This document shows, piece after piece, positions 145-14,201 of a stretch of 48,795 nt of DNA (position 1 is its first letter; each line of letters begins with the position of its first letter). The notes under the pieces were generated by a model. That model worked only from the letters and a program-made list of their open reading frames with translations, had not been told where the DNA came from and made no database searches. The stretch is taken from assembly GCA_964372825.1 (NCBI GenBank), contig CAYJTA010000001.1, positions 1-48,795 on the forward strand. The letters are read 5' to 3'. The stretch is from an uncultured archaeon. Its GTDB lineage: Archaea; Aenigmatarchaeota; Aenigmatarchaeia; QMZP01. The translations under genes and the position numbers were made by a program.

Positions 145-1182
145 ATGGCAAGGAAAGGCTTTATCCACATCATAGAGGTAATAGTCATAACTTTGGTAGT
201 CTTCGTGCTCGTTTTCCAGTTCTCCACCCTGCCTACAATACAGACTGACTGGCAGGCCCATGAGCTCAAGCTGCAGGCCTATGACATCCTCAGCCTGCTG
301 GATGCAAAAGGCATTGACTGGCTCAGTCCTGCCGATGTCTCGAGAAACATGGACTCCATACTGAACGGCACCAATGTCAAGTATGAGCTGAGGATATCCA
401 ATGCAGTGAAGAACAATATCTCTGTGGGATGCATATGCACGCCAGAGGAATACAGCCTCTTTCTCCCATCAGTAAATCCTGTCCAGTTCAACAGCAGGAC
501 AGTCACATTCCAGAGCGAGAGAATAGATTCTTCCAGCCCCTCATATTCCCTCAGACATGACGTCATCTATATAGGCACCTCGGCATGGAATTCGGGAAAG
601 ATAGAGAACACAAGCAGCCTTCTGCTTTCATACATTTCAAGCGGCAAAGGAATCCTGCTTTCCGCCAACCTCTCAAGGAACTCGGATCTGCTGGCAACCC
701 TTTTCGGCATAAGGTCTGTCACTGTTTCGCCCTCAAGCCTGCCATTCGTTTTCAGCGAATACGGCAGCCCCAGGCTGGCATCCGCTGTTGCCAGGTATTT
801 CACCAAAATACCCTATGCCTATGGCAGATACTTCTCAAGCATCCATGAATTCGAGTCATTTTCTCCTGTGAACAGCATAGATGCGGATGTAAAAAACATT
901 ATACTTGTCCAGAAGTCCACAGGCTATCCGGGTGCAATAGTAAGGGAGAGGATAGTGTCAGGCAAAGGAAGGGCTGCATGGCTGACCGTAAGCATTCAGC
1001 CCTCGGAGGACATACAGCACCTTGTCAGGAGCCTCATTCTATACCTCTCCGCAAACGAGTTCAGGGCGGCAGGAAACGATGTGCTGAGGCCAGTGAAGGC
1101 AACTATCCTGAGGGACCTCAGGAAAAGCGGCAGCATGCTGGAGCCTGTGGAGATAAGCCTTTATCTGAGCTATACTTTCTAA
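145..1182 (+). CDS. class III (prepilin-like) signal peptide protein, extracytoplasmic, function unknown
   Basis: 345-aa ORF. The N-terminus MARKG/FIHIIEVIVITLVVFVLVF has a short basic leader, a Gly, then a hydrophobic helix with Glu near +6, as in type IV pilin-like precursors. Several N-x-S/T sequons. Confidence 0.6.
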   Translation: MARKGFIHIIEVIVITLVVFVLVFQFSTLPTIQTDWQAHELKLQAYDILSLLDAKGIDWLSPADVSRNMDSILNGTNVKYELRISNAVKNNISVGCICTPEEYSLFLPSVNPVQFNSRTVTFQSERIDSSSPSYSLRHDVIYIGTSAWNSGKIENTSSLLLSYISSGKGILLSANLSRNSDLLATLFGIRSVTVSPSSLPFVFSEYGSPRLASAVARYFTKIPYAYGRYFSSIHEFESFSPVNSIDADVKNIILVQKSTGYPGAIVRERIVSGKGRAAWLTVSIQPSEDIQHLVRSLILYLSANEFRAAGNDVLRPVKATILRDLRKSGSMLEPVEISLYLSYTF

Positions 1183-1289
1183 ATTGTTGTTCACAATCAT
1201 ACGGCTGATGTTTTTTCCCTTACCGGCGTGATAAGGCCTCGCTTCCTGCGGGAAATGCCTATTTATTCATTGGAGCGCATTATCTGTGT

Positions 1290-1583
1290 ATGGAACAGCA
1301 GCAGGAAGGCGAGGTAATAAGGGTGAGGCTCCCAAGGAGAGGAGAAGTGCTAGGCACAATAGAGGAACTCCTCGGAGCTTGCAGGTTCAAGGTTTTATGT
1401 GCAGACGGCCATCTGAGGCTCTGCCGCATACCCGGCAAGTTCAGGAAAAGGGTCAATGTCTATATCGGCGACATCGTCCTTGTGGAGCCATGGTCAGTTG
1501 AAAGCAATGAGAAAGGCGACATCCTCTGGATATACAACAGGACCAATGCGGACTGGCTGAGGAGGAAGGGCTTCATCAAATAG
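1290..1583 (+). CDS. eif1a: translation initiation factor aIF-1A (S1-like OB fold)
   Basis: 97 aa. GEVLGTIEELLGACRFKVLCADGHLRLCRIPGKFRKRVNVYIGDIVLVEPW is the typical aIF-1A/eIF-1A core. Confidence 0.9.
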   Translation: MEQQQEGEVIRVRLPRRGEVLGTIEELLGACRFKVLCADGHLRLCRIPGKFRKRVNVYIGDIVLVEPWSVESNEKGDILWIYNRTNADWLRRKGFIK

Positions 1584-1968
1584 CATTGCTGCTATTTCCA
1601 GCCGGCTGTGCATTTCTTTGTCTGTACGTCCCATCCTTTTTCCTTATTATGATATCAGCTACCAAGTAGGCATCCAGATTATTTTTAGCATCTTCATGCT
1701 CCTGATCTCTTCGGCGTTGTTTGTACCTTTTCCATGCCTCGTCACGAAGTGACCACAATCCTTCCAACGGAATGCGGAACAGATGCTCTTCAGCCTCATG
1801 AACTTTTCTGATATCTTCGGAAGCCATGCCTAAGCTGGACAACCTATTATCCATATCATCCGACTGCAGAAGCAGATCTTCTACACAGCCTAAAGGTCCA
1901 AGCCCCCTTGACATTTCATATAGAATTTGGATTTGCTGCTGCGATGGACTGTATTTTTCCATATCCAT
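1576..1968 (-). CDS. hypothetical cytoplasmic protein
   Basis: 130-aa ORF. Its ATG directly abuts, in the same frame, the TAG stop of the upstream 1003-aa gene. Charged helical composition; no recognisable motif. Confidence 0.45.
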   Translation of the reverse strand: MDMEKYSPSQQQIQILYEMSRGLGPLGCVEDLLLQSDDMDNRLSSLGMASEDIRKVHEAEEHLFRIPLEGLWSLRDEAWKRYKQRRRDQEHEDAKNNLDAYLVADIIIRKKDGTYRQRNAQPAGNSSNAI

Positions 1969-4900
1969 CTATTTAGTAAGCGTCAGGAACCTTACAACAA
2001 GCACTGCAACTATGAGGAAGGCTATAATCCCTATAGCTATTGCTTTCAGGCTGTCCTGCCTGATTATCTTTCCTGTCTCATTTATAGTGGCATTGAACGA
2101 CACATTCTTGGCAGGCTTGGGAAGGCTGCTCACATTTTCAGGTCCAGCAGCAGGAGATGGTGTGGCAGTTGCCGTTTCCTTGGGCGCCGGAGCCGGAGAT
2201 GATGTTGCTGTGGGTTTCGGGGCAGGAGAAGCCGTAGCTTTTGGCGTTTCTGCCGGCGCTGGAGCCGCTGCCTCAGGAATCATGAAGAAGAGCTGCACAT
2301 GGGAATTGAGTCCAAACACTCCCGGATAAGAGCCGTATGTCCTGCCATCGCTGTGGTAGGCTATGGCTAGCGCAGATGCTGTTTCTTTTGTGCTTTTCTC
2401 AAGTGGCTTCAGTTTCAGGCTGAAAGCGCCATTTCCGTTCGCATCCGCCTTGAACCTGTTCTCTGAGCCGTCAGACGCGCCGCATGGCTTGTCAACTATC
2501 CGTGCATTCGGCGGGAAGGTTATCCGTGAGCACCAGGCTGTATATGTTCCATTCGGCACAAGCTTCTGGAAAGACAGGATCATTTCAGCGCTACCCTCTG
2601 TTGCAGTATATGTCCCGCTTCCAGCCGCAGCAAGCCATTCCCCGAGGGTGAAGTCCAATGATTTCCCTTTGGCGAATGGCCCCAGAGGCTTTTTGCCCAG
2701 ACTGAAAGGGTCATGTGCGGTTGCTGTCGCAGTTGCATATGCGGTCTTTGCGAGATTTTCAGCTTTCTTGGAATCATTTACATCAGGCCTCATTACCTGC
2801 CCCTTTTTCGTTTCATTTGTTTCGATGAAGACGTCCTGCTCGGGCATGCCTGCCTGCATGTGGTTCACAAACTTGATCTCAATCTTTTCTGCTGCCGGCT
2901 TTAATGTCGGGGAAGGCGCAGGAGGGGCTGTCGGCGTTGCTGTGGGTGCCGGCTGAGGAGAAGGCGATGGTGCTGGCGTGACAGTTGTTGTAGGTGTTGC
3001 CTGCGGCGAAGGCGCTGCGCCTGGCGCCGCCACATTCAGCTTTATATCAGCTGACGATTCCGAATATTCGGACTTCGCAATGATCTTTGCAGGATAGGAT
3101 GCGGGGCTGACGCCATAGGGCGGCGACGCGTAAAGATATATGGTCGCCTCCTGTCCGCTGTCGAGGGAAAGCGCTTTTGTGCCAAGGTACAGCCACTGGG
3201 GGCCTTCAACGCTGATGGAGAATGTGTTTTTCTTGAGTCCTGTATTCTTTATCTTCACAGGCAAGGCCAAAGACTTCAGGGCCTCAATGTTCGCTGCAGC
3301 AGGGGAGGATGGCAATACTGAAGAGGAGTAGCATGCCGCAGTATCCCTTATCACAAGGCTCCCCTTGGCAGATGCCTTTGCGTTCTTGGACACTGCACTG
3401 GCTTCCAAGGTTCTGGTTTCTGCTTTCGCAGAGCATGGGACTGCCACAGGGTATTTCAGCGTTTCGCTTTTCCCTGCCTCAACCTTCACACCCTTCTTTA
3501 TGCCCACGCCAGAAATTTCAACATCATACTCGTCAGCAACCTTCCCATTGTTGGAAACGACAAGCCCGATCTCCGCAGTGTCGCATGCGCATGTTTCGGT
3601 TTTTTCCGGCACCACAGAAAGCCCGGAGGCAAAGCAGTTCTCTGCCGTCAGCAACGAAATGGTCTTGTCGGTTATTCTGTCCGCCTTTGCGGCCACATTG
3701 ACTATCTTGTCGCCCACGAAATCGGCCTTGACGCTCAGCTTGACGCTTTTCGCCTCTTTCGGCTTGAGGCTCAACTGGCTTTTCTCAAGGGTTCCCAGAT
3801 CCGCTGTTATGTCCACCGTTTCCTCTACGGCGCCTATGTTCTTGACTATGACATCATAAGTTATTGCCGTGCTGGAGCAGACAGTGCTCTGCACAGGTGA
3901 CATCACAACCACTATCCCCCTGCACTCATCCACATCTATGTTGAGATTGACAGTCTTCCTGTCCGAAAGTGAGCTCAGGGGCGTGATGCGGATGCTGAAA
4001 GTCTGTTTCCCGGTAGACAGGGGAGTGACAAAGATCTTCATCTGGTCTTTCTGGCCGCTGCCAAGGGTCAGGCTCGCCTTTTCGGCCTTTGCAAATGCCT
4101 GGTCAGACTCCACCGAATATGTGTCCTCGAGGCCAAGGTTGGACAGGCCAAGCGTGAAGTTCGCAGAGCTTCCGAGGCACAGCTTTGCTGTTGTGGGCTG
4201 CACGTCAGCAACAAAGCTATAGCAGTCCCTCAGCGTCAGGGAGAATGGGCTGCTGGTCGTCGCAAGGGTTGCCCTTGATCTGGCCGACAATACAAATTCC
4301 TGCTTTCCTACAATGTCCTTCGGCGGAGTAAGCGAGACAGCAATTATTTTGCTTTCCCCGGCATTGAGGGTAATGGCCGGCGTATTGATTGTCGTATAAC
4401 TCACAGCCTGGCCGCCCTTCGTGACAAAGAGGTCGAATGTTTCAGATACCTTGCCGATGTTTTTGACCTCAGCTGCATATGCCACGGGCTCTTTTTTCTC
4501 CGAACAGATATCCTTCTGGCTTTCCGATATGACAACAGTGACTCCTCTGCAAGAAAGCACATTCACATTGAATGTCTTAGTGACAGTCTCCCTGGTCACG
4601 CCAGAGAGCGCAGAAACCGATATGGCATATGTGCCTGGCTGGACATCCGGCACCGTTATCCATATGGCCTCAAGCTGCCTTGTCTCCATCGGCGGCACGA
4701 ACATTTCAGGCTGTATGAATCCGCTCCAGCCTGAAGGCAAAGAGAGGCTCAGAGAGTATGTGTCGCTCTTGTCCAGCTGATTCCTGATATACAGGGGCAC
4801 AACGCTCTTATCCAGAGGCGGCGTGTCCTTCAGCACAGTGGGACAGGTAGATGGCGTCTGCAACAGTTTCAGGTCGAGGTCGAAGCTGGCTGCGTTGGCG

Positions 4901-4980
4901 AATTGTGAGATGATAGCTATGGAAACAATCCAGATAAAAATTATCTGTCCTGCAAATTTCATATACATACATATGACCAC
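1969..4980 (-). CDS. large cell-surface (S-layer-like/adhesin) protein with N-terminal signal peptide, repeated beta-sandwich domains, two Pro/Thr/Ala-rich linkers and a C-terminal TM anchor
   Basis: 1003-aa ORF. Hydrophobic N-terminus IIFIWIVSIAIISQFANA. Repeats of the type DTYSLSLSLPSGWSG / ETFDLFV / EDTYSV / ADEYDVEI. PT-rich linkers (APSPQATPTTTVTPAPSPSPQPAPTATPTAPPAPSP and APAPAETPKATASPAPKPTATSSPAPAP). C-terminal AIAIGIIAFLIVAVLVVRFLTLTK. Confidence 0.85.
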   Translation of the reverse strand: MVICMYMKFAGQIIFIWIVSIAIISQFANAASFDLDLKLLQTPSTCPTVLKDTPPLDKSVVPLYIRNQLDKSDTYSLSLSLPSGWSGFIQPEMFVPPMETRQLEAIWITVPDVQPGTYAISVSALSGVTRETVTKTFNVNVLSCRGVTVVISESQKDICSEKKEPVAYAAEVKNIGKVSETFDLFVTKGGQAVSYTTINTPAITLNAGESKIIAVSLTPPKDIVGKQEFVLSARSRATLATTSSPFSLTLRDCYSFVADVQPTTAKLCLGSSANFTLGLSNLGLEDTYSVESDQAFAKAEKASLTLGSGQKDQMKIFVTPLSTGKQTFSIRITPLSSLSDRKTVNLNIDVDECRGIVVVMSPVQSTVCSSTAITYDVIVKNIGAVEETVDITADLGTLEKSQLSLKPKEAKSVKLSVKADFVGDKIVNVAAKADRITDKTISLLTAENCFASGLSVVPEKTETCACDTAEIGLVVSNNGKVADEYDVEISGVGIKKGVKVEAGKSETLKYPVAVPCSAKAETRTLEASAVSKNAKASAKGSLVIRDTAACYSSSVLPSSPAAANIEALKSLALPVKIKNTGLKKNTFSISVEGPQWLYLGTKALSLDSGQEATIYLYASPPYGVSPASYPAKIIAKSEYSESSADIKLNVAAPGAAPSPQATPTTTVTPAPSPSPQPAPTATPTAPPAPSPTLKPAAEKIEIKFVNHMQAGMPEQDVFIETNETKKGQVMRPDVNDSKKAENLAKTAYATATATAHDPFSLGKKPLGPFAKGKSLDFTLGEWLAAAGSGTYTATEGSAEMILSFQKLVPNGTYTAWCSRITFPPNARIVDKPCGASDGSENRFKADANGNGAFSLKLKPLEKSTKETASALAIAYHSDGRTYGSYPGVFGLNSHVQLFFMIPEAAAPAPAETPKATASPAPKPTATSSPAPAPKETATATPSPAAGPENVSSLPKPAKNVSFNATINETGKIIRQDSLKAIAIGIIAFLIVAVLVVRFLTLTK

Positions 4981-5340
4981 AAATTTTTTATTCTTATCTG
5001 CTGTTTCATGAGGGACAAACTACGCCTGCATTACACGCCTGCTTTTCCGCGAAACCAGCAGCTTTTTGCGTTTCGTATGCCAAAAGTAATTCATGCGTAA
5101 TTGCAGGAGCAGCTATTCAAGATTACAGTAACAGCTCAAAACCGCTTAAGGATCATCTTATGCCTTTCCCTGTTTCATGCTTCTATATCTCGTTTCTAGC
5201 ATAAGTATTGTGATCTATACTATAATAACCGCAAAACATGGAAAATCAACGTCCTTGAATGGATTCAGATTAATCAGCTTCTGGGCAGTGCGCTGCCTTA
5301 TAGAGGTAATGTTTTATTCCATGCCCCCCCAAAAGACATC

Positions 5341-5595
5341 ATGGAAACCAAAAAGAGGCTGGAAGCAGAAACCAGGAAATGGCTTGAAAGGCTTGAAAAC
5401 GATATGCAGCTTATCAAATCCAGTAAGCTGCCTAAGCCCACAGCCGAGCAGATGGACAATGTTTATGCTTATATCGAAGACTGCCGCTACTTTCTCGGAA
5501 AGAAGGATCACATCAATTCCTTCGAGGCCATAATCTATGCCTGGGGGATATATGAAACCCTGCTGAGGCTTGGGATGATAGAAAAAGAGAAGTGA
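5341..5595 (+). CDS. small archaeal protein, DUF357-like
   Basis: 84 aa. The pattern YAYIEDCRYFLGKKDHINSFEAIIYAWGIYETLLRLGMI resembles the DUF357 consensus (Y..D...F...gD...A....YA.G.lD...rlG). Recognised from memory only. Confidence 0.5.
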   Translation: METKKRLEAETRKWLERLENDMQLIKSSKLPKPTAEQMDNVYAYIEDCRYFLGKKDHINSFEAIIYAWGIYETLLRLGMIEKEK

Positions 5596-5862
5596 GCCCG
5601 GAGGGATTCTCGCCTTGATTTATCAGTTCAGTATTTGTATTGCCTTTCTTTGGATACCTTACCCTTTCTTTTGGAAAGAAAGGGTAGCTTCGAACCCTCG
5701 ACACCCTGGTGTCACCTGCAGCCATTCATCCTTCCGTCATATGGCTCCGCACTAAGAGCCAGGTGCTCTACCAGATTGCTCTACCCTCTTCCTTTGTAAC
5801 TTTTTCTTTTCCGTGCACGCTTTTCTTTTCCTAAAAGAAAAGGGTGCCTGAGCTACGGGCCC
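5593..5862 (-). tRNA. tRNA-Lys (anticodon CTT) with three introns: D-loop about 5778-5847, anticodon loop about 5710-5751, T-loop about 5607-5688
   Basis: Minus-strand exons join to GGGCCCG-TA-GCTCAG..TCTGGTAGAGC-A-CCTGG-CTCTTA(G/A)-CCAGG-GTGTC-GAGGG-TTCGAAT-CCCTC-CGGGCTC-A. Acceptor, anticodon and T stems all pair. TATA box about 30 nt upstream and a T-rich tract downstream. Confidence 0.85.
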
Positions 5863-5887
5863 ACTATACCAATTAAAATGTCTCATC

Positions 5888-5897
5888 TATTTATACG
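5888..5897 (-). promoter_or_regulatory. TATA box for tRNA-Lys(CTT)
   Basis: Minus strand reads GTATAAATAG, centred about 30 nt upstream of the tRNA 5' end. It lies in the divergent intergenic region shared with the aIF-2 gamma gene. Confidence 0.45.
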
Positions 5898-5951
5898 CCT
5901 TCCTTTTCGTGAATATGGTATTGTGTATTTATTCCATGTGGGCAAAAAGAA

Positions 5952-7217
5952 GTGATCACTATGGCAGAGAAAACAAAAGCCAGGCAAAAGGCAAGGGAAG
6001 CCATTGACAGCAGGTTTTTGCCTGACATAAATGTAGGCATGATAGGCCATGTGGACCACGGCAAAACCACGCTTACAGCAGCCCTCACAGGCAAGTTCAC
6101 GGACACCCACAGCGAGGAGATCAAAAGGGGAATCACAATAAGGCTGGGCTATGCCGACGCTACCATCTACAGATGCCCCAAATGCCCGGACCGCATATAC
6201 GGGCTTGATCCAAAATGCCCCGTATGCCACTCTGAATGCGAGCCTGCGAGGACAGTGTCTTTTGTGGATGCCCCCGGGCATGAAACCCTCATGACAACAA
6301 TGCTCTCAGGGACAGCCATAATGGATGCAGCCATTCTTCTTGTGAGCGCTGCCGAGCCCTGCCCCCAGCCGCAGACAAGGGAGCATCTCAAAGCGCTTGA
6401 CATAGTGGGAATCAGGAACGTCATCATAGTCCAGAACAAGATCGATATTGTCACAAGGGAGCAGGCTCTCCAGAACTATGCCCAGATAAAGTCATTTGTC
6501 AAAGCCACCATCGCTGAAAATGCCCCCATCATACCCATCTCAGCGCAGCAGAAGATAAACATAGATTGCCTTGTGGGGATGCTTGCGGAAAGGCTGCCAA
6601 AATCCGAGAGGGATTCCAAAGGGAGGCTGAAGATGCTTGTTGCAAGGAGCTTCGATATCAACAGGCCCGGAACGCAGATAAAGGATCTCAGGGGCGGCGT
6701 CCTCGGGGGAAGCATACTTTCCGGGACTCTTCATGTGGGCGATGAAGTGGAGATAAGGCCCGGCATAAGCATCAAGAACAGGTACAGGCCTGTGTTCACA
6801 AAGGTTGCAGGCATCCAGAAGGCCGGCAGAAATATGGAAGAAGCCACTTCAGGCGGCCTTGTGGGCATTTCGACAACCCTAGACCCTTCCCTGACAAAGA
6901 GCGACAGCCTTGCGGGAAACATCCTCGGCCTGCCAGGCGAGATTCCGGAAACTGTTTATGACATCTCTATAGAAGCTCACCTTCTCGACAAGGTTGTCGG
7001 AACAAGGGAGGAGATGAGGGTCGAAGGCATAAAGCCGAACGAGACGCTTCTTCTTACAGTCGGCATATCAAGGACTATAGGGACTGTAGTCTCTGCCTCC
7101 CACGGGGTGGACATCAAGCTGAGGATGCCTGTATGCGCTGAAAAAGGCGACAGGATTGCCATATCAAGGCAGATACTCAGCAGATGGAGGCTCATAGGAT
7201 GGGGGGAGATAGTATGA
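5952..7217 (+). CDS. eif2g: translation initiation factor aIF-2 gamma subunit (GTPase)
   Basis: G1 motif GHVDHGKTTL, DAPGH, NKID, and the zinc knuckle CPKCPDRIYGLDPKCPVCHSEC typical of a/eIF2-gamma. The true start is probably the ATG at 5961 (MAEKTKA). Confidence 0.93.
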   Translation: MITMAEKTKARQKAREAIDSRFLPDINVGMIGHVDHGKTTLTAALTGKFTDTHSEEIKRGITIRLGYADATIYRCPKCPDRIYGLDPKCPVCHSECEPARTVSFVDAPGHETLMTTMLSGTAIMDAAILLVSAAEPCPQPQTREHLKALDIVGIRNVIIVQNKIDIVTREQALQNYAQIKSFVKATIAENAPIIPISAQQKINIDCLVGMLAERLPKSERDSKGRLKMLVARSFDINRPGTQIKDLRGGVLGGSILSGTLHVGDEVEIRPGISIKNRYRPVFTKVAGIQKAGRNMEEATSGGLVGISTTLDPSLTKSDSLAGNILGLPGEIPETVYDISIEAHLLDKVVGTREEMRVEGIKPNETLLLTVGISRTIGTVVSASHGVDIKLRMPVCAEKGDRIAISRQILSRWRLIGWGEIV

Positions 7218-7285
7218 TTGTTGCAACAGGATACGAATCCTTCTCCGGCAACGAGATCTTTTCACAAATCAGCTAGGTGGCGGAT

Positions 7286-7930
7286 TTAAGCCTCTTCTGT
7301 AGCTTTCTTTTCCGAACCAAACATAACCTTTGCAGCCAGATACCCAAAGGCAAAGCCGCCTATATGCGCCCAGAACGCTATACCTGAACCTCTCCCTCCC
7401 GCAAAGCTCTGGAAGCCAAGCAGCAGCTGTATCACAAACCACAGGCCTATTAGCATCCTGGCAGGCAGCCTATAGGTCTGGTAGAATGGCCCTATAGTCT
7501 TTATGCTGACATTCGGGAAAAGCACAAGATATGCCCCAAGCACGCCTGATATGGCCCCGGATGCCCCAACTGCGGGTATGACTGAACCCAGGTTGGTCAT
7601 GTAGTGGACAAGAGAGGCCGCAATGCCTGACATCAGATAAAATGCAAGGTACTTCACCTTTCCCATCCTGTCCTCCACATTATCCCCGTAAAGCCACAGG
7701 TACCACATGTTGCCGAATATGTGGTCCAGCCCTCCATGGAGGAACATGGCCGTAAACACCGTAAGGATGCTGAACTCGGCAGGCACGAAGCCGTATGTGT
7801 TCAGTATGTTCTCGAAATCCGAAAGACTCCATATGAAGACAGCTATATTGAAGGCTATTATGGAAACCGTCACATAGGGGAATGATTTAGAGACATTCTC
7901 ATCCTGGTAGGGGAAGAACTGGCCTTTCAT
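7286..7930 (-). CDS. rhomboid-family intramembrane serine protease
   Basis: 214 aa and polytopic. Motifs HGGLDHIFGNM, catalytic GASGAISGVLGAY, and HIGGFAFG with the catalytic His. Confidence 0.88.
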   Translation of the reverse strand: MKGQFFPYQDENVSKSFPYVTVSIIAFNIAVFIWSLSDFENILNTYGFVPAEFSILTVFTAMFLHGGLDHIFGNMWYLWLYGDNVEDRMGKVKYLAFYLMSGIAASLVHYMTNLGSVIPAVGASGAISGVLGAYLVLFPNVSIKTIGPFYQTYRLPARMLIGLWFVIQLLLGFQSFAGGRGSGIAFWAHIGGFAFGYLAAKVMFGSEKKATEEA

Positions 7931-7959
7931 CTTATTGCATGCTTTCCTGGGTAAAAAAG

Positions 7960-8565
7960 CTAACCGTACCCTTCCGTTATCTCCCTGGTTATGCTTCTGA
8001 ATGTCTTTTCTAGCGTTGCAGGCTCAAGGTTGCAGATGACCTCCCTCTCTTTGAACAGCACAACCATCTCCTTGACAAGGTCGAAGGCCTTCCTTGTGTC
8101 CTGTTTCAGCCTTGCGACACCGCCGGGCTCAAACTCCGGTTTATGGCCAGTCCTTATCTCCTTTATCTCCGCAGCATCCTTGTGTATCTGCCCGAGCAAC
8201 GAGTCAAGCTCCCTGAGCATGCATATGAGCCTGTAGTCCTGCCTTACCAGCTTCTTCAGCAGCTCCGGGGAGCTGTAGCTCCACTTGCAGTGTCTTATCT
8301 TGATTTCATCCGAGAAGATGTCGATCTCATCCTTCAGATGCTCAAGATCCCTGTTCAGGTTTTCATGCTGCAGCTCATAGAGAAGCTGGATGGTGAAAAA
8401 CAGCCTGTTCTTGCAGTTCCTGATGGCCTTCACAATCAGGTCCCCCATTTTCTGGTCAGTTGCGATAGCCTCTGTCCCATCCTCATAGCTGTAGCCTGGA
8501 ACCATCTTTTCAAGATCTTTCAGTATGATGGACGTTTCTTCCTTGGCCTTTTTCCAGCCTTCCAT
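7960..8565 (-). CDS. hypothetical helical cytoplasmic protein
   Basis: 201-aa ORF with protein-like charged/helical composition. No motif recognised. Confidence 0.55.
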   Translation of the reverse strand: MEGWKKAKEETSIILKDLEKMVPGYSYEDGTEAIATDQKMGDLIVKAIRNCKNRLFFTIQLLYELQHENLNRDLEHLKDEIDIFSDEIKIRHCKWSYSSPELLKKLVRQDYRLICMLRELDSLLGQIHKDAAEIKEIRTGHKPEFEPGGVARLKQDTRKAFDLVKEMVVLFKEREVICNLEPATLEKTFRSITREITEGYG

Positions 8566-8630
8566 AATTATCTATTCCCCCTTGGAGTTAAAATTGAATT
8601 TGAACGGTGGCTTATGAACTTATTGGGTCG

Positions 8631-9215
8631 TCAGAAGAGAATCCCATCCCTCATGATCCCGGCACCCCTGCCGGGGCACATCCTTGAAAAGATGCAGGCA
8701 TAATCAGTGACCGTAGTCATCTGGACCGCTATATCATGATTGCTTGATCCCCATGTCATGAGTATTCTGTCCAAATCTTTGGGCGCATAGCCGCCAAAAT
8801 CAAAATTTTCCTCCCCGTTTACAAACATCCTCAGCCTCTTCCCCCCGCTGTTGCAATAGCTCCTTTGCGTGCCTGCAACAAGGCAGTTTTTGTTAAGCTC
8901 CATCCCTATCGACCTGAAAAACATGCCTATGGAGGCATTGGAAGCTTCGATATGAAGCACGTATGGCCCATATGGATTGTCGAGGTGCAGATGTATGGAG
9001 GAGCTCTTTTCATTGTATTCCTTTCTCGAAAAATCGATCTCTTTCCCATCAATATAGACTTTGAAATCAGCATGCATGTGCGCAGAGCCTTCAGGGCCGA
9101 TCTCAGAAGGCTTCTTTTCAGTTGCAGTGAATATGCCGAGTACAAATATTATGGTCAAAGCAAATATTGCTGGCCAGAGAGGCCTTATCCAGTGACTTTC
9201 CCTTTTCTTTGCCAT
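8631..9215 (-). CDS. membrane-anchored extracytoplasmic protein with His-rich motifs, function unknown
   Basis: The track ORF is 8631..9272. The internal start MAKKRESHW at 9215 gives a basic leader plus one TM (LWPAIFALTIIFVLGIFTA) and avoids running up to the 5S gene. Motifs HMHADFKVYIDG, HLHLDNP and VLHIE. Confidence 0.6.
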   Translation of the reverse strand: MAKKRESHWIRPLWPAIFALTIIFVLGIFTATEKKPSEIGPEGSAHMHADFKVYIDGKEIDFSRKEYNEKSSSIHLHLDNPYGPYVLHIEASNASIGMFFRSIGMELNKNCLVAGTQRSYCNSGGKRLRMFVNGEENFDFGGYAPKDLDRILMTWGSSNHDIAVQMTTVTDYACIFSRMCPGRGAGIMRDGILF

Positions 9216-9252
9216 ATCGATTATTGTCAGCGGCCAAGAAAGCCTTTTGCCA

Positions 9253-9260
9253 TTTAAATA
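9253..9260 (+). promoter_or_regulatory. TATA box for the 5S rRNA gene
   Basis: TTTAAATA centred about 26 nt upstream of the predicted 5S 5' end. Confidence 0.5.
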
Positions 9261-9281
9261 CCTTCCAGCCATATTGTAACT

Positions 9282-9390
9282 GGGCGGCCAAAATGGGGAG
9301 GATCACCCGTTCCCGTTCCGAACACGGAAGTTAAGCTCCCCGATGGTCCAGGAAACCTGCCTAACGGCGGATAGCCTGGATAGCTGCCCA
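9282..9390 (+). rRNA. rrf: 5S rRNA (short, about 109 nt, not linked to 16S/23S within this window)
   Basis: Contains the conserved CCCGTTCCGAACACGGAAGTTAAGC block. Helix I is GGGCGGC/GCTGCCC, helix II-III is GGGGAG/CTCCCC, and helix IV-V is TCCAGG/CCTGGA. Confidence 0.85.
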
Positions 9391-9436
9391 CTTTCTATTT
9401 CCAAGTCCTATATCTTCATTTCGCGCCAAATGCAAC

Positions 9437-9444
9437 TTTTATAA
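9437..9444 (+). promoter_or_regulatory. TATA box for tRNA-Asp
   Basis: TTTTATAA about 40 nt upstream of the tRNA 5' end, which would imply a short leader. Confidence 0.35.
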
Positions 9445-9479
9445 GCTTTCCCTCATATCTAAATATTGGCTCATTAAAT

Positions 9480-9699
9480 GCCCATGTGGTGTAGCGGTCC
9501 AGCATAGGAGCCTGTCAGCAGCCTTTCTTTTCACAAAAGAAACGCTGGCGATAGAAAACTTCGCGAAGAAGGGCCGGCAGTCCGCTCTTGACCCGGGTTC
9601 AAATCTACCCTTTCTTTCCGAAAGAAAGGGTAAGTTATCCAAAGAAAGGGAATACACATACTGAACTGGATAATTATGGTGAAAATCCCGGCGTGGGCG
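9480..9699 (+). tRNA. tRNA-Asp (anticodon GTC) with two introns: canonical 37/38 intron about 9518-9582 and T-loop intron about 9605-9686
   Basis: Exons are GCCCATG-TG-GTGTAGCGGTCCAGCAT-A-GGAGC-CTGTCA|C-GCTCT-TGAC-CCGGG-TTCAAAT|CCCGG-CGTGGGC-G. All four stems pair and the anticodon loop CTGTCAC is typical of tRNA-Asp. Confidence 0.85.
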
Positions 9700-9734
9700 C
9701 TTCCTACCGAATTAGTTGTGTATAGGCATAACTT

Positions 9735-9971
9735 TCACCTGTTAATGAATCCTTTGACATCTGTGGCCAGCCACATCCCAAGTGCAGGGCCAGGAAGGCC
9801 GTCCAGAGCCTCATTCCAATAATCCACTGCTTTTCGAAATTCTTCCGAAAAAACTTGTATCTCTTCGTAACCTGCATTTATGTAGAAGTCTGCATCTCTC
9901 GAATTCATTGCCAGAATAATTCCATTCCGGCGAAGATAGCTATCGGTTAAATTCATGGTCTGCCTTTTCAT
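9735..9971 (-). CDS. hypothetical small protein
   Basis: 78-aa ORF in a lower-GC patch. No motif recognised. Confidence 0.35.
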   Translation of the reverse strand: MKRQTMNLTDSYLRRNGIILAMNSRDADFYINAGYEEIQVFSEEFRKAVDYWNEALDGLPGPALGMWLATDVKGFINR

Positions 9972-10023
9972 TTATTCCCGATATTCTTCTTCACTTATCT
10001 CTTGGTCCACAGGAGATTCATAT

Positions 10024-10129
10024 ATTAAAGTGAAACAACTAAAGAATCTGCATTTTCAGAAAGATATATAAACAGTCCTGTTATCGTTTTTCCGTTAACG
10101 CTTTTTGATTTATTTCATGGAAAAGGGTT
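10024..10129 (+). repeat. 106-bp direct repeat, copy A (105/106 identical to 14096-14201)
   Basis: TTAAAGTGAAACAACTAAAGAATCTGCATTTTCAGAAAGATATATAAACAGTCCTGTTATCGTTTTTCCGTTAACGCTTTTTGATTTATTTCATGGAAAAGGGTTA. It covers the last 16 codons and the 3' flank of the minus-strand gene ending at 10081. Confidence 0.9.
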
Positions 10130-10575
10130 ATATGGACATTGTCCAGATGAGAAAACCTTTCCGGTGCCATGGTCGGGTCAATACCTATAACGACCTCGGG
10201 CGACCATATTTTTCCCACACTGTCATCGCCTCCAATAGCAGGATAGAATATGACATTGCCTGTGCTGGCAACATTTTTCTTGAGTTCCTTCAGAATGCAT
10301 AAATATGCTTGATCAATGATATTCGTTCTCTCGTCAGCATAGTTTAGCGTGTTCCTGATATGCACGGATATCTCATTTCCGTGAGGCATCACATAAAAAG
10401 GCACCCCATTATATACTCTGCAAAATCTATCGTCAATGCCGGGCTCCAGATCCTCGGTTCCGGCAGCCTCTTACAGCAGCCTGAAAGCAAAGTCTTTGTA
10501 CTTCCTTTCGAATATTTCTGCAAGCTTGTATAGCTTCTCAGCGTTTGAAAGCGGAACAAAAGCCTTTTGTTTCAT
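10081..10575 (-). pseudogene. hypothetical protein gene interrupted by one in-frame TAA (10471-10473)
   Basis: ATG at 10575 opens MKQKAFVPLSNAEKLYKLAEIFERKYKDFAFRLL, then TAA. The same frame continues EAAGTEDLEPGIDDRFCRVYNG into the track ORF 10081..10404, which starts at GTG. Verified codon by codon. Confidence 0.5.
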
Positions 10576-10600
10576 AATAGATCTGATAAGAGGGTAAAAA

Positions 10601-11338
10601 TCAAACCAGCATGCTGAACATGTTCCTGTTAAGGCTTCTCTCTGCCAGAACCAGCGGCTTCTGCTCGATTCTCATTGGCACCGGCCTTCCGCATTCGTGG
10701 CAGTAGCCTTCGGCCTTTGCCTTCGGCGCGGGGGAATATGAAACCTGCCTGACTTTCTGCGCTGCACGCTCAACATAAGGCTGCACATAGCTCTTGAAGT
10801 ATGAATAGCTTGCGTTCTGCGCTTCTCTCTCGGCCACAAACCTGAGCCTATCAGTGCTGTTTTCCAATGCTTTTCTCGCTTCCCTCTTCGCTATAAGGGC
10901 GACATCATAATAGGCCTGCCTCATGGCATCCTCGAAGCTCCTCTCAAAGGACTCCTTCATCTCCATCCATCCCCTCGAAGCAGTATCCTTGGAATGGACA
11001 TGCCTCATCTCCATGTCCCTTTCGATGTGCCTCTCCCTCTCTTCAATAGCTTCTTTCAGCTTCGCTATCTCAGGCTTTATATCAGAAACATCGGTCTTTG
11101 GGGCAGGCTGCTGCACCACGACAACAGGTTCCGGCTGCTTAGGCTGCTGGACAATGACAACAGGCTTCGTTTCCTTAGGCTGCTGCACAAACACAACCGG
11201 CTTCTGCATCTGGCCGGTCGCATATAGCTCCATCATGTCCGTGATGAACTTGTTATAGCTCCTGCTGCCTTTTAGCGTGTCAGCTAGGCCTTTTGTCTCC
11301 CTGCTCACCCATATAGTCGTGCTTCCTGCCATGTTCAA
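10601..11338 (-). CDS. hypothetical protein with a possible N-terminal ribbon-helix-helix-like segment, three tandem PVVxVQQP repeats, a coiled-coil and a C-terminal CxxC
   Basis: 245 aa. N-terminus is TTIWVSRETKGLADTLKGSRSYNKFITDMMELY. Repeat region is QKPVVFVQQPKETKPVVIVQQPKQPEPVVVVQQP (nt about 11099-11206). C-terminus has CHEC. Confidence 0.6.
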   Translation of the reverse strand: MNMAGSTTIWVSRETKGLADTLKGSRSYNKFITDMMELYATGQMQKPVVFVQQPKETKPVVIVQQPKQPEPVVVVQQPAPKTDVSDIKPEIAKLKEAIEERERHIERDMEMRHVHSKDTASRGWMEMKESFERSFEDAMRQAYYDVALIAKREARKALENSTDRLRFVAEREAQNASYSYFKSYVQPYVERAAQKVRQVSYSPAPKAKAEGYCHECGRPVPMRIEQKPLVLAERSLNRNMFSMLV

Positions 11339-11432
11339 ACCTGTGTTATGGAGTATAGATGGCCATAAAGGCTACTTATAGTATGGCCTATATATATTTA
11401 AGCTTTTCGCTACTGAGAAGTTGTCTTTGCAT

Positions 11433-11864
11433 TCAGAATTTGCGCCTTTGCTGGTAACCGTTGCGGCTGAACTCAGATGGATGACCTGATGGCTGAGGAC
11501 ATGTGCCTAGAGAGCGCTTGTAATCTTCCTCCCTTCTCATGCCTTCATAGTCATGCCTCAGCTCTTCGCTCGCCGGTTCAAGCTCCGGGAGCCCTTTTTC
11601 AGTCGCCAGCCCCTCCCTCAGCCTTTTCAGGGCCTCGCCAAGCTGCCTGTCACTAGGCGCTTCTATTGTTATCAAAGCCCGATATGGCAGCAGGCAGTGT
11701 TTTGCATCGATAAGCGGCTTTGTCGGCAGCGAAACCCCTGTTATGGTTGCAGGCAGATCGCTGAACTCCACACTATAGGTTATTGTTTTGTCTTTCTCAG
11801 CGCTTTTAGCTGCAAGCCTTTCGAGTGGCAGATCATCCCTGCTGAGGTAGATTTGGCATGGCAT
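11433..11864 (-). CDS. hypothetical protein
   Basis: 143-aa ORF with protein-like composition. No motif recognised. Confidence 0.5.
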   Translation of the reverse strand: MPCQIYLSRDDLPLERLAAKSAEKDKTITYSVEFSDLPATITGVSLPTKPLIDAKHCLLPYRALITIEAPSDRQLGEALKRLREGLATEKGLPELEPASEELRHDYEGMRREEDYKRSLGTCPQPSGHPSEFSRNGYQQRRKF

Positions 11865-11923
11865 GGACTCAAATTCACCAGCAGGCTTTAAATACTATGA
11901 TGGTAGCCGGAAAAAGAAGAAAA

Positions 11924-12253
11924 TGAGCCCGGAGGGATTCTCGCAGCGCACATCGCTCTATCCAAAGAAAAGACAATACAAACGATGAGCTTGTTATTTA
12001 TTCTACATTTGTATTTCCTTTTCTTGGATACCCTACCCTTCTTTTTGGAAAAGAAGGGTGGTTTCGAACCCTCGACTCCCTGGTATCTTCCCCCATCTTT
12101 CTATCATTTGGCTAAAAGCCATCCATATGCTTTTAACGTGAGTTAAAAGCCAGGTGCTCTACCAGATTGCTCTACCCTCTTCCTTTGTAACTTTTTCTTT
12201 TCCGTGCACGCTTTTCTTTTCCTAAAAGAAAAGGGTGCCTGAGCTACGGGCCC
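11924..12253 (-). tRNA. tRNA-Lys (anticodon TTT) with three introns: D-loop about 12169-12238, anticodon loop about 12084-12142, T-loop about 11938-12062
   Basis: Exons are GGGCCCG-TA-GCTCAG..TCTGGTAGAGC-A-CCTGG-CTTTTAA-CCAGG-GAGTC-GAGGG-TTCGAAT-CCCTC-CGGGCTC-A. The 5' 106 nt (12148-12253) are identical to 5757-5862. Confidence 0.85.
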
Positions 12254-12280
12254 ACTGATATTCAAGATATTCTCTGTCTT

Positions 12281-12288
12281 ATTATAAA
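12281..12288 (-). promoter_or_regulatory. TATA box for tRNA-Lys(TTT)
   Basis: Minus strand reads TTTATAAT, centred about 31 nt upstream of the tRNA 5' end. This is the same spacing as at the CTT gene. Confidence 0.45.
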
Positions 12289-12395
12289 TAGCCATGAATG
12301 GCAGCATATCGCTCATGTTCAATTCATGGTCTAATAGATTCCTTCATCTCCGGTTTCCAAAAACAAAGAAAAAGAGAAAAAAAGAAAGTAAATTC

Positions 12396-13553
12396 TTACA
12401 CCGGCTTCCCGTATATGAATATCTGATTATTTGTAGTGTCGTCAAAGTTTCCTATGCACGGCTTCGGATACAGCAGCTTGAACTCCACTTCTGCCTGCCC
12501 TGTCGGAAGAAGGACATTGTTTGCCCACCCTGTCAGTGTCGCAGGCTTTCCTGGATCCAATAGGGTGCTGTTGAACAGCGGCCTTGCACCTGTACAAAGT
12601 CCTGTAGTAACTATGCTGAGATAGCTGCACTCAAAGTTTGTGTTCGGGTTAGTTACATGAGCCCAGCCTTCAGCCGGATTGTCTCCTGGGAAGCCTGTAA
12701 GGACTGTCTGAAGCGTCCCTGACCTTGCCCTGTAATAGACGCCTGTAACGTTATTTGCTGAACTTCCCTCGACATCCAGTTTGTTCGTATCCGGGCAGAG
12801 AGACGGTCCGCTTGTGGAGAACAGGTCAGTCATTGCTATGAAAACCCAAAGCGCTACCCTGTTAGCCGTATTTTCTATGAATATCCTGTTAAGGCTGTGT
12901 GCAAACTCTCCCGGCTGCACATTCTCGAATGTTATCGGACTGCCGTCGCTTGATATAACATCCATGCCTACCGAAGGGTTGAATATCCACCTCTCGGCAT
13001 ATAAGCTAGTTGTTAGCGCATTGCTTGCATCCATCACACCGATGGTCACATTAACAGGAGCGTCCGGATCTGTGGGCTCTACAGTGTAAAGACACCTGAA
13101 TGCCTTGTCTGTCTGGTTGTCTGTGACACCATTTGCCGTACTCGAGTTTCCTGTCTGCCTCAGTCCGTCGCATGTGCCGGGAAGCGATTCTGGTGAGCAT
13201 ATGACTTTAAGGGTGTCATTAATTTTCACATAAGCCTGTCCTATATCAATAACACCATTTGGGTCCCTGACTATCACTAAAAACCCAATCTCCTCGCCAT
13301 TGAAAGCATAGCTTCCAGGTCTCAGGTTCAGCACATTGATTGTCGGCGCATCAGCCCCTAGTTTTGTCGGGCTTCCTGTGCCATTGCCAAAGAAGTCCCC
13401 AGGGCTTATTGTGACTGTTCTGTTTTTGATGCATATCTGCGGGGCAATATCGCCTGGCTGCGCACCTGCACCGACGCTCCCACTTGGATCTGCAAGAGCA
13501 ATTGCTGCCAATAACGATGCCAAAACTACGGCTGATAGAATTATGCTTTTCAC
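12396..13553 (-). CDS. secreted Cys-containing, sequon-rich protein, function unknown
   Basis: The track ORF is 12396..13613. A GTG at 13553 is preceded by AGGAGGTGA with a 7-nt spacer, giving VKSIILSAVVLASLLAAIALA, a clean signal peptide. Many N-x-S/T sites. Confidence 0.8.
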   Translation of the reverse strand: MKSIILSAVVLASLLAAIALADPSGSVGAGAQPGDIAPQICIKNRTVTISPGDFFGNGTGSPTKLGADAPTINVLNLRPGSYAFNGEEIGFLVIVRDPNGVIDIGQAYVKINDTLKVICSPESLPGTCDGLRQTGNSSTANGVTDNQTDKAFRCLYTVEPTDPDAPVNVTIGVMDASNALTTSLYAERWIFNPSVGMDVISSDGSPITFENVQPGEFAHSLNRIFIENTANRVALWVFIAMTDLFSTSGPSLCPDTNKLDVEGSSANNVTGVYYRARSGTLQTVLTGFPGDNPAEGWAHVTNPNTNFECSYLSIVTTGLCTGARPLFNSTLLDPGKPATLTGWANNVLLPTGQAEVEFKLLYPKPCIGNFDDTTNNQIFIYGKPV

Positions 13554-13560
13554 GTTTTTG

Positions 13561-13569
13561 TCACCTCCT
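13561..13569 (-). promoter_or_regulatory. Shine-Dalgarno site (AGGAGGTGA) for the 12396..13553 gene
   Basis: Minus-strand AGGAGGTGA lies 7 nt upstream of the GTG and is complementary to the archaeal 16S 3' end consensus. Confidence 0.6.
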
Positions 13570-14095
13570 TTATTTGGGTACTTAGGGCGGCCATTGGCCT
13601 GCCGCCATTCCATGCATTGGCTTTCAGGCGTGGCCGCCCCAAGGCTGGCAAAGCTGCCTTGGTAATGCGCCCCTCGCTCGGCGCACCCTCCATTGGTTGC
13701 ACAAAGGAGAATGAACAGAAAAAGACATCCGTAGCCCTCTTGTACCCTTTCCGGGGCATAAGGCTTGAAAAGCTTCCGGTTATTTTCATCACAGCACTGT
13801 AAATGTGTCTCAGAATTTGGTATAAAAAACTAAGTAGCCTATGTGTAGTGCTTTTGTCTGGATTTTGTACCGCAGTACGCAGAACAGGCATATGTCAGGT
13901 CTTGGCTGAGGGGGCCATTGAAAAGGTATTTAAGCATGAAGGAACTTTTAGTTACCGAAAAGTGCTTTTTGTACTTCAACATCATGTGAATATCACACCT
14001 CTACGTGCTCTGATAGCCTGCTGTTTTATCGGCTTTTTGCATATTGTGAAAATATGTTTTCCTTGCAATTCCATTCCAAGAAGGCAGAGCAACTG

Positions 14096-14201
14096 TTAAA
14101 GTGAAACAACTAAAGAATCTGCATTTTCAGAAAGATATATAAAAAGTCCTGTTATCGTTTTTCCGTTAACGCTTTTTGATTTATTTCATGGAAAAGGGTT
14201 A
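14096..14201 (+). repeat. 106-bp direct repeat, copy B
   Basis: One mismatch to copy A (TATAAAAAGTCC versus TATAAACAGTCC). Here the 16 duplicated C-terminal codons are immediately preceded by an in-frame TAA, so this copy is a gene-end remnant. Confidence 0.9.

Follow-up and report, generated by a model that had tools for sequence, protein, structure and literature searches.

A 5' segment with its D-loop intron, probably transferred recently between two triple-intron tRNA-Lys genes of an Aenigmatarchaeota genome

The two tRNA-Lys genes of an Aenigmatarchaeota (DPANN) genome, with anticodons UUU and CUU, contain the same 5' block. Most probably the block was passed recently, and non-reciprocally, from one paralog to the other, and with it a 72-nt D-loop intron, most parsimoniously from the CTT gene to the TTT gene. 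The direction, considered by itself, is held with moderate confidence. What we infer in this account is the mechanism of recombination, its direction and the actual splicing. The stretch of DNA analyzed (hereafter the window, 48,795 nt) is contig 1 of a short-read MAG (1.15 Mb, 162 contigs, 90% complete).

Both genes are on the minus strand, i.e., in the same orientation, 6.4 kb apart. Introns were placed by spliced alignment to a Lys template, together with the coordinates. The tRNA-Lys(UUU) gene (11924-12253, 330 nt) consists of four exons and three introns. Exon 1 (nt 1-15 of the tRNA, 12239-12253) is followed by a D-loop intron of 72 nt at position 15/16 (12167-12238). Exon 2 (nt 16-37, 12144-12166), with the anticodon base 34 at 12147, is followed by an anticodon-loop intron of 59 nt at position 37/38 (12085-12143), which carries an antisense to the anticodon loop. 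Exon 3 (nt 38-59, 12063-12084), with the isoacceptor-specific A45, is followed by a T-loop intron of 125 nt at position 59/60 (11938-12062) and by exon 4 (nt 60-73, 11924-11937). The position of the T-loop intron is ambiguous, from 56/57 to 59/60, because GAA is repeated; 59/60 is retained by the bulge rule. The tRNA-Lys(CUU) gene (5593-5862, 270 nt) has its exons at 5862-5848, 5775-5753, 5710-5689 and 5606-5593, and its introns at 5847-5776 (72 nt), 5752-5711 (42 nt) and 5688-5607 (82 nt). For both genes the joined exons give a canonical tRNA of 74 nt, recognized by ARAGORN as tRNA-Lys(ttt) and tRNA-Lys(ctt), respectively. The two mature tRNAs differ at two positions, i.e., nt 34 and nt 45, and are identical to the products of the corresponding genes of a sister species (G001, see below).

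ARAGORN detects in the window neither the two intact Lys genes nor the tRNA-Asp(GUC) gene (9480-9700, plus strand), which has an intron at 37/38 and a short-form T-loop intron of the Lys family. Rfam, at gathering as well as at permissive thresholds, finds no Lys or Asp gene, the 5S rRNA alone being found. ARAGORN finds 15 tRNA genes in the whole genome, none of these three among them; on the basis of this total, the majority of the tRNA genes of the genome are probably multi-intron. Such MAGs would look poor in tRNA unless multi-intron genes are searched for.

The repeat search and the MAFFT alignment give the same block: 12144-12256 (TTT locus, minus strand, probable recipient) and 5753-5865 (CTT locus, minus strand, probable donor) are identical over 113 nt with one mismatch, at nt 34 of the anticodon (T at 12147, C at 5756). 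The first-pass annotation had reported by eye an identity of 106 nt between 12148-12253 and 5757-5862, and it is exact (106/106). These 106 nt comprise exon 1 (15 nt), the 72-nt intron at 15/16 and exon 2 through nt 33; the 113-nt block adds three upstream bases and nt 34-37, of which nt 34 is the mismatched one. The D-loop introns (12238-12167 and 5847-5776) are thus identical at 72/72 positions. Between the same two genes, the T-loop introns differ at 16/78 positions (Fisher, p = 1.6e-5 against 0/72) and all the other aligned non-coding positions at 65/157 (p = 1.3e-13 against 0/72), therefore the identity of the D-loop introns is not due to chance. Whichever the direction, an identity of 72/72 would require a recent transfer between the paralogs.

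The D-loop intron has the features of a relaxed splicing motif. The bulge-helix-bulge (BHB) criterion used was a central helix of 4 bp, bulges of 3 nt and cuts 2 nt 3' of the helix, in strict or relaxed (HBh' or hBH) form. The D-loop intron corresponds to HBh': (i) helix H joins GCUC of the exon (nt 10-13) to GAGC, which lies close to the 3' end of the intron; (ii) helix h' joins ACCC, at the 5' end of the intron, to GGGU; (iii) each strand is cut 2 nt 3' of the central helix (AG|G and AA|U). Removal of the intron restores the D-loop AGUCUGGUA, as in the intron-less genes of G001. Helix covariation is in agreement with this assignment: among 10 homologs from the order, 90% of the cells are paired, 5/8 pairs are compensatory and 0/500 shuffles match these values, a result that is supportive and not a formal proof, the segments having been extracted by hand and an extra C.A by the bulge of the window copy having been dropped. 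The members of the D-loop intron family are found in Lys and class II tRNA genes, the homologs from other genera being 52-82% identical. In the class II tRNAs the exon is GCCA and its intron partner UGGC. The T-loop intron, as read from the sequence, forms an hBH motif at 59/60 with the T stem, UUCG/CGAG and an AAU bulge. A box C/D sRNA was also considered for the D-loop intron and was rejected, since neither C nor D boxes are present.

The genome encodes a single EndA (L171:1186-2376, i.e., contig C6 of the window genome, G000, minus strand) of 396 aa with domains PF01974 and PF02778. It gives a full-length match to PDB 4FZ2 (E = 4e-94) and appears to be a splicing endonuclease of the epsilon2 type. 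4FZ2 is the three-unit epsilon2 EndA of ARMAN-2, which cuts relaxed motifs (PMC3488258), and in 2018 this type was reported from relatives of Micrarchaeum only (PMC5829648). The Lys introns are presumably excised in vivo, because in the genome the Lys 5' exon has a match in these two genes only.

The history of each segment was examined in relatives. The nearest genomes are Candidatus Aenigmatarchaeota MAGs. The gene for aIF2-gamma adjoins the CTT gene and has 80% identity with its counterpart in a groundwater MAG of this group (contig L011 of G001), a sister species in the same genus; its further matches are in Aenigmatarchaeota and other DPANN. A second relative, GCA_053536595.1 (contigs L172 and L173), was reached through a 96%-identical aIF2-gamma and through a cluster mate of a neighbouring protein, which gave the 5' half of the TTT gene. 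With 87-92% nucleotide identity to the window it is closer than G001. Positions 145-13613 of the window are collinear with L011, both tRNA-Lys genes being at orthologous places, and both loci are also collinear with L172 and L173. The two loci are old, i.e., they pre-date the event and do not result from a fresh duplication. Exact look-ups of two window proteins gave no second assembly of the window genome. Metagenome contigs were also scanned for two exact patterns, the intron/exon junction and a degenerate one, with no match.

In G001 neither Lys gene has a D-loop intron, and the anticodon-loop and T-loop introns are orthologous to those of the window. In the four-way alignment with G001, the informative sites support the grouping (TTT,TTT)(CTT,CTT) by 22:1:1 in total, the count being 6:0 for the 5' flank, 11:0 for the anticodon-loop intron and 5:1:1 for the T-loop intron. 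The introns of orthologs are about 70-84% identical only between the two species, which are thus well separated. In GCA_053536595.1 the D-loop intron is absent from the TTT gene, exon 1 being joined straight to exon 2. Its CTT gene has at the same 15/16 site an intron of 105 nt, with 56 matches to the 72 nt of the window and many indels. It is plausible that the two CTT introns are orthologous, the 105-nt copy being strongly diverged. In other words, the flanks, the anticodon-loop introns and the T-loop introns group by ortholog, and the state of the D-loop intron groups by genome. Since all segments follow the species tree except the D-loop intron, which follows the genome, this is the signature of gene conversion. 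Orthology, synteny and the comparison with two relatives thus bear out what the first-pass annotation had proposed for the 5' segment, namely gene conversion or concerted evolution. A block ancestral and unchanged everywhere does not agree with its absence from both G001 genes and from the TTT gene of GCA_053536595.1. The independent turnover of introns in the 3' half, proposed in the same place, is not found either: the introns there are old, specific to each paralog and conserved between species.

As to the direction, the TTT gene is intron-less in both nearest relatives and the CTT gene of the nearest one contains a homolog, so that a transfer from CTT to TTT is the simplest history. The D-loop intron would have been present in the CTT gene before the window genome and GCA_053536595.1 separated, would have diverged afterwards and, in the window lineage, would recently have been copied into the TTT gene. 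The opposite choice, with TTT as donor, had been considered on the basis of the 15/16 introns present in TTT genes across the family and of the A at flank base -3. GCA_053536595.1 led to reversal of this preference, because it shows that the A at -3 is ancestral in CTT, and its TTT gene is intron-less. An intron ancestrally present in TTT, with losses in the two relatives, is possible, since in four other genera (G006, G007, G016 and G017) the TTT gene has an intron of this family at 15/16.

The transfer could have occurred by gene conversion or by template switching between direct repeats 6.4 kb apart, i.e., by short-homology repair. The sole homology arms would have been the identical flanking exon sequences, the left one of 15-18 nt and the right one of 19-23 nt, and it is from these lengths that short-homology repair or template switching is proposed. 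Such arms are very short for classical homologous recombination, which counts against the transfer as explained here. The border of the block at nt 34 may have two reasons: the sequence beyond it (the anticodon-loop introns beyond nt 37) is non-homologous, and a tract spanning nt 34 would erase one isoacceptor and be selected against.

A comparable event, on the other side of the gene pair, is seen in GCA_053536595.1. Its two Lys genes share an identical block of 139 nt starting right after nt 45 (T in CTT, A in TTT). This block is the ortholog of the long TTT T-loop intron of the window (90.7%), which suggests that the 3' half of the CTT gene was overwritten from TTT. This evidence comes from contig ends, since both contigs stop at the 139-nt block, as would happen if the assembly had been broken by a repeat of roughly the k-mer length of the assembler. 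At the 3' end of the TTT locus, L172:6340-6524 contains a T-loop intron version with a third hairpin and does not overlap with L173:5910-6153; the two versions could reflect a strain mixture or a much longer, composite intron. Lys pairs with similar 3' halves and different 5' introns are also found in G008 (L146/L147, 98 nt at 99% across the two 3' introns), G023 (L135/L136, 69 nt at 97%) and G024 (L163/L164, 60 nt at 98%). In this family, segmental conversion within the Lys gene pair appears to be recurrent. The T-loop introns of G024 are about 365 nt long.

The T-loop introns of the window (12062-11938 and 5688-5607) are homologous and longer in TTT, as had been noted: 125 nt vs. 82 nt, with 83-86% identity over the common part of about 78 nt. 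The TTT intron indeed contains an inverted repeat, its arms (12030-12008 and 11982-11959) folding into a long hairpin, and the two other copies, CTT and Asp(GTC) (9480-9700), have the left arm without the right one. However, the description of the TTT intron as expanded by this inverted repeat has to be abandoned, for the two-armed long form is also found in Lys(TTT) of G001 and in Arg(CCT) and Gln(TTG). The long form consists of hairpin 1, the long inverted-repeat hairpin and a third hairpin. It is found in Lys(TTT) of G001, in GCA_053536595.1 and in the Arg(CCT) (contig C145) and Gln(TTG) (C143) genes of the window genome; relative to G001, the third hairpin is deleted (28 nt) in the TTT intron of the window. 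The short form is that of the CTT genes of both species and of the Asp gene of the window. From the occurrence of the long form in Lys(TTT), Arg(CCT) and Gln(TTG), the inverted repeat appears to be part of the full-length architecture of the family, and the short CTT and Asp forms would be truncated ones. The family comprises introns of Lys, Asp, Arg(CCT), Gln(TTG) and Leu genes. The short T-loop intron resembling that of Lys(CTT) is present in tRNA-Asp(GUC) of the window and of GCA_053536595.1 (L172:3945-4165). In G001 the same gene (L011:13319-13600) has a different, long T-loop intron of the AGGC...GCCC type. This difference suggests that T-loop introns are exchanged also between non-isoacceptor genes a few kb apart.

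The anticodon-loop introns had been described as 42 vs. 59 nt long and unrelated. The lengths are correct, but a core of about 20 nt is common to both, GCCAAATGATAGAAAGATGG in TTT and GCCATATGACGGAAGGATGA in CTT (15/20 by eye), the rest being largely unalignable. The 59-nt intron of the window is orthologous to the TTT introns of G001 and GCA_053536595.1. More generally, the 37/38 intron of Lys(UUU) is kept in the TTT genes of G001, G002, G004, G007, G011, G013, G015-G017 and G022. Its parts come in this order: first TTAAAAGC, which is antisense to the anticodon loop, next a CUGA-like box, then a hairpin that varies and last an AUGAYAG-like box. C32 pairs with the base that lies five positions upstream of CUGA. 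This arrangement is similar to that of a box C'/D' guide for Cm32 carried by an intron. The window genome encodes fibrillarin (G000:C9:6496-7128). The CUGA is degenerate in the genus of the window.

The introns, the D-loop intron among them, are built of hairpin modules, for example N3-4-C-CUUUUCUUUU-loop-AAAAGAAAAG-C-N'-RCGGAAAAGAAAA, and such modules recur in numerous further tRNA introns and in intergenic arrays, both in the genome and in its order. Arrays outside recognizable tRNA genes are at C6:2860-3180, C6:6465-6785, C28:1-477, C23:1467-1945, C2:10469-10934 and C14:4990-5050 of the window genome. In C36:2861-3360 (minus strand), the 3' end of a tRNA-Leu is followed by a hairpin module and by a second 3'-exon-like sequence, GAGAATCCTTCTCTCCCGCA, which is possibly a remnant or an alternative 3' half. 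In the window, 10024-10135 and 14096-14201 are copies of a MITE-like dispersed repeat (106-112 nt, at least 20 copies at 95-100% across contigs), one end of which corresponds to the reverse complement of the hairpin module of the introns. That these two copies bracket an integrated element with the TTT gene was considered and rejected: the repeat is dispersed (at least 20 copies) and the TTT locus is syntenic in G001.

The modules lead to a speculative extension, which we regard as rather unlikely: that they are self-propagating, each being followed by a mirror-image purine tract, and home introns between tRNA genes with no endonuclease. The modules would provoke breaks or replication stalls, which would be repaired by short homology from the neighbouring tRNA paralog. 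If this were true, the 5' block of the window genome and the 3' block of GCA_053536595.1 would be two snapshots of one process. Quite unlikely, in turn, is that a site-specific mobile intron or hairpin module was recently inserted twice, independently, from a third source copy, at the same D-loop position of both genes. This would agree with the wide distribution of the module in tRNA introns and intergenic repeats of the genome and order, and with the repeat of about 112 nt which contains it in at least 20 near-identical copies, so that modules appear to be mobile. A search of the window genome for a further copy of the 72-nt intron argues against it, having found none (best match, 89-91% over 44 nt), and so does the 3' end of the intron, which fits the Lys D-stem (GAGC), unlike the copies of class II tRNAs (TGGC).

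An assembly artefact, i.e., a block created by collapse, chimeric joining or polishing of the two paralogs, is very unlikely, although the short-read MAG, with its 162 contigs, is probably not free of errors. Two suspicious internal duplications, both 100% identical, are present in it: positions 1-1949 and 2278-4226 of C84 (1949 nt) and positions 3875-4650 and 4619-5394 of C72 (776 nt); they are probably assembly artefacts or tandem repeats. Other near-identical repeats (C52, C22, C146 and C77) are duplicated ends of protein genes and contain no tRNA genes. Nevertheless, both copies of the block are inside one contig of 48.8 kb, with unique flanks orthologous to two other assemblies. In addition, the common sequence without the intron is 18 nt on one side and 19-23 nt on the other, which we infer to be too short for a path switch in a de Bruijn graph; at the usual assembler k, the junctions between flank and intron should thus be present in the reads.

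Still less probable is an RNA-mediated route, in which the D-loop intron, once excised, enters the other pre-tRNA-Lys at the homologous site by reverse splicing and reaches the chromosome as a DNA copy through recombination, in a manner resembling retrohoming. It would account for an intron at exactly the same site in both genes, and the 3' end of the intron, which pairs with the exon strand of the D-stem, could dock on an isoacceptor with identical exons. This route is weakened by the reverse transcriptase search (PF00078), which detected none in the genome (90% complete). To our knowledge, reverse splicing is no established reaction of the archaeal protein endonuclease and ligase. The current view for such introns is also a DNA-level route (review PMC4090602).

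It is hardly credible that the intron is ancestral in both genes and kept identical by strong purifying selection on a functional intron RNA: the module helices are indeed conserved with compensatory changes across genera, but the intron is absent from three of the four Lys genes of the two relatives (both of G001 and TTT of GCA_053536595.1), the remaining CTT copy differs by many indels and the homologs of other genera are only 52-82% identical. Equally hard to credit is a recent duplication of the whole gene followed by an anticodon change and replacement of the 3' part, since both loci, despite mature tRNAs that differ only at nt 34 and nt 45, have their own flanks and introns at orthologous positions in G001 and GCA_053536595.1.

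Compared with the two relatives, the gene pair has the value of a clean natural experiment: across three genomes the D-loop intron is in both, one or neither of the two genes, while all other segments retain the history of their orthologs. This pattern points to homology-driven copying at the DNA level, between neighbouring isoacceptors, as one route of intron gain and loss, with selection at nt 34 and nt 45 setting the borders of the tracts. According to the review PMC4090602, the movement of short protein-spliced introns among the tRNA genes of archaea still awaits an explanation.

The process belongs to a known kind, that of concerted evolution among tRNA genes and of intron «transposition» in archaea. 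In yeasts, as cited in PMC4090602, intergenic conversion between tRNA genes also equalizes introns (Amstutz 1985, Heyer 1986, Mori 2011). The Lys case is alike in the non-reciprocal homogenization of dispersed genes, intron included, and in the short tracts bounded by sequence that must stay different. It is unlike in that the two genes are isoacceptors of an archaeon, one segment only is homogenized and a whole intron would be inserted with exon arms of roughly 18-23 nt. In the homing of group I introns and archaeal rRNA introns, similarly, an intron-less allele gains the intron by copying from an intron-containing homolog; unlike in endonuclease homing, the 72-nt intron has no ORF and is spliced by a cellular protein enzyme. 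With regard to splicing, the closest likeness is to ARMAN-2 (Candidatus Micrarchaeum), with relaxed HBh' and hBH motifs in D- and T-loops (PMC3239211, PMC3488258) and an epsilon2 EndA which the sole EndA of the window genome matches over its full length (4FZ2). The window genome belongs, however, to another phylum.

Archaeal intron «transposition» (2010, Mol Biol Evol 27:2233, as cited in PMC4090602) is of a mechanism unknown according to the authors of PMC4090602. The Thermoproteales-type groups resemble the present case in several respects: (i) highly similar short BHB-type introns at the same non-canonical positions of different tRNA genes; (ii) up to three introns per gene; (iii) late intron gain. 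Introns more than 70% similar at the same position in distinct tRNA genes, by which these groups are defined, are found here in the T-loop and D-loop families. The differences are that the lineage is DPANN (Aenigmatarchaeota) and not Thermoproteales (Thermoproteota), that the Lys introns are built of pyrimidine/purine hairpin modules also present outside tRNA genes, and that the comparison of three genomes points here to homology-driven copying between neighbouring paralogs.
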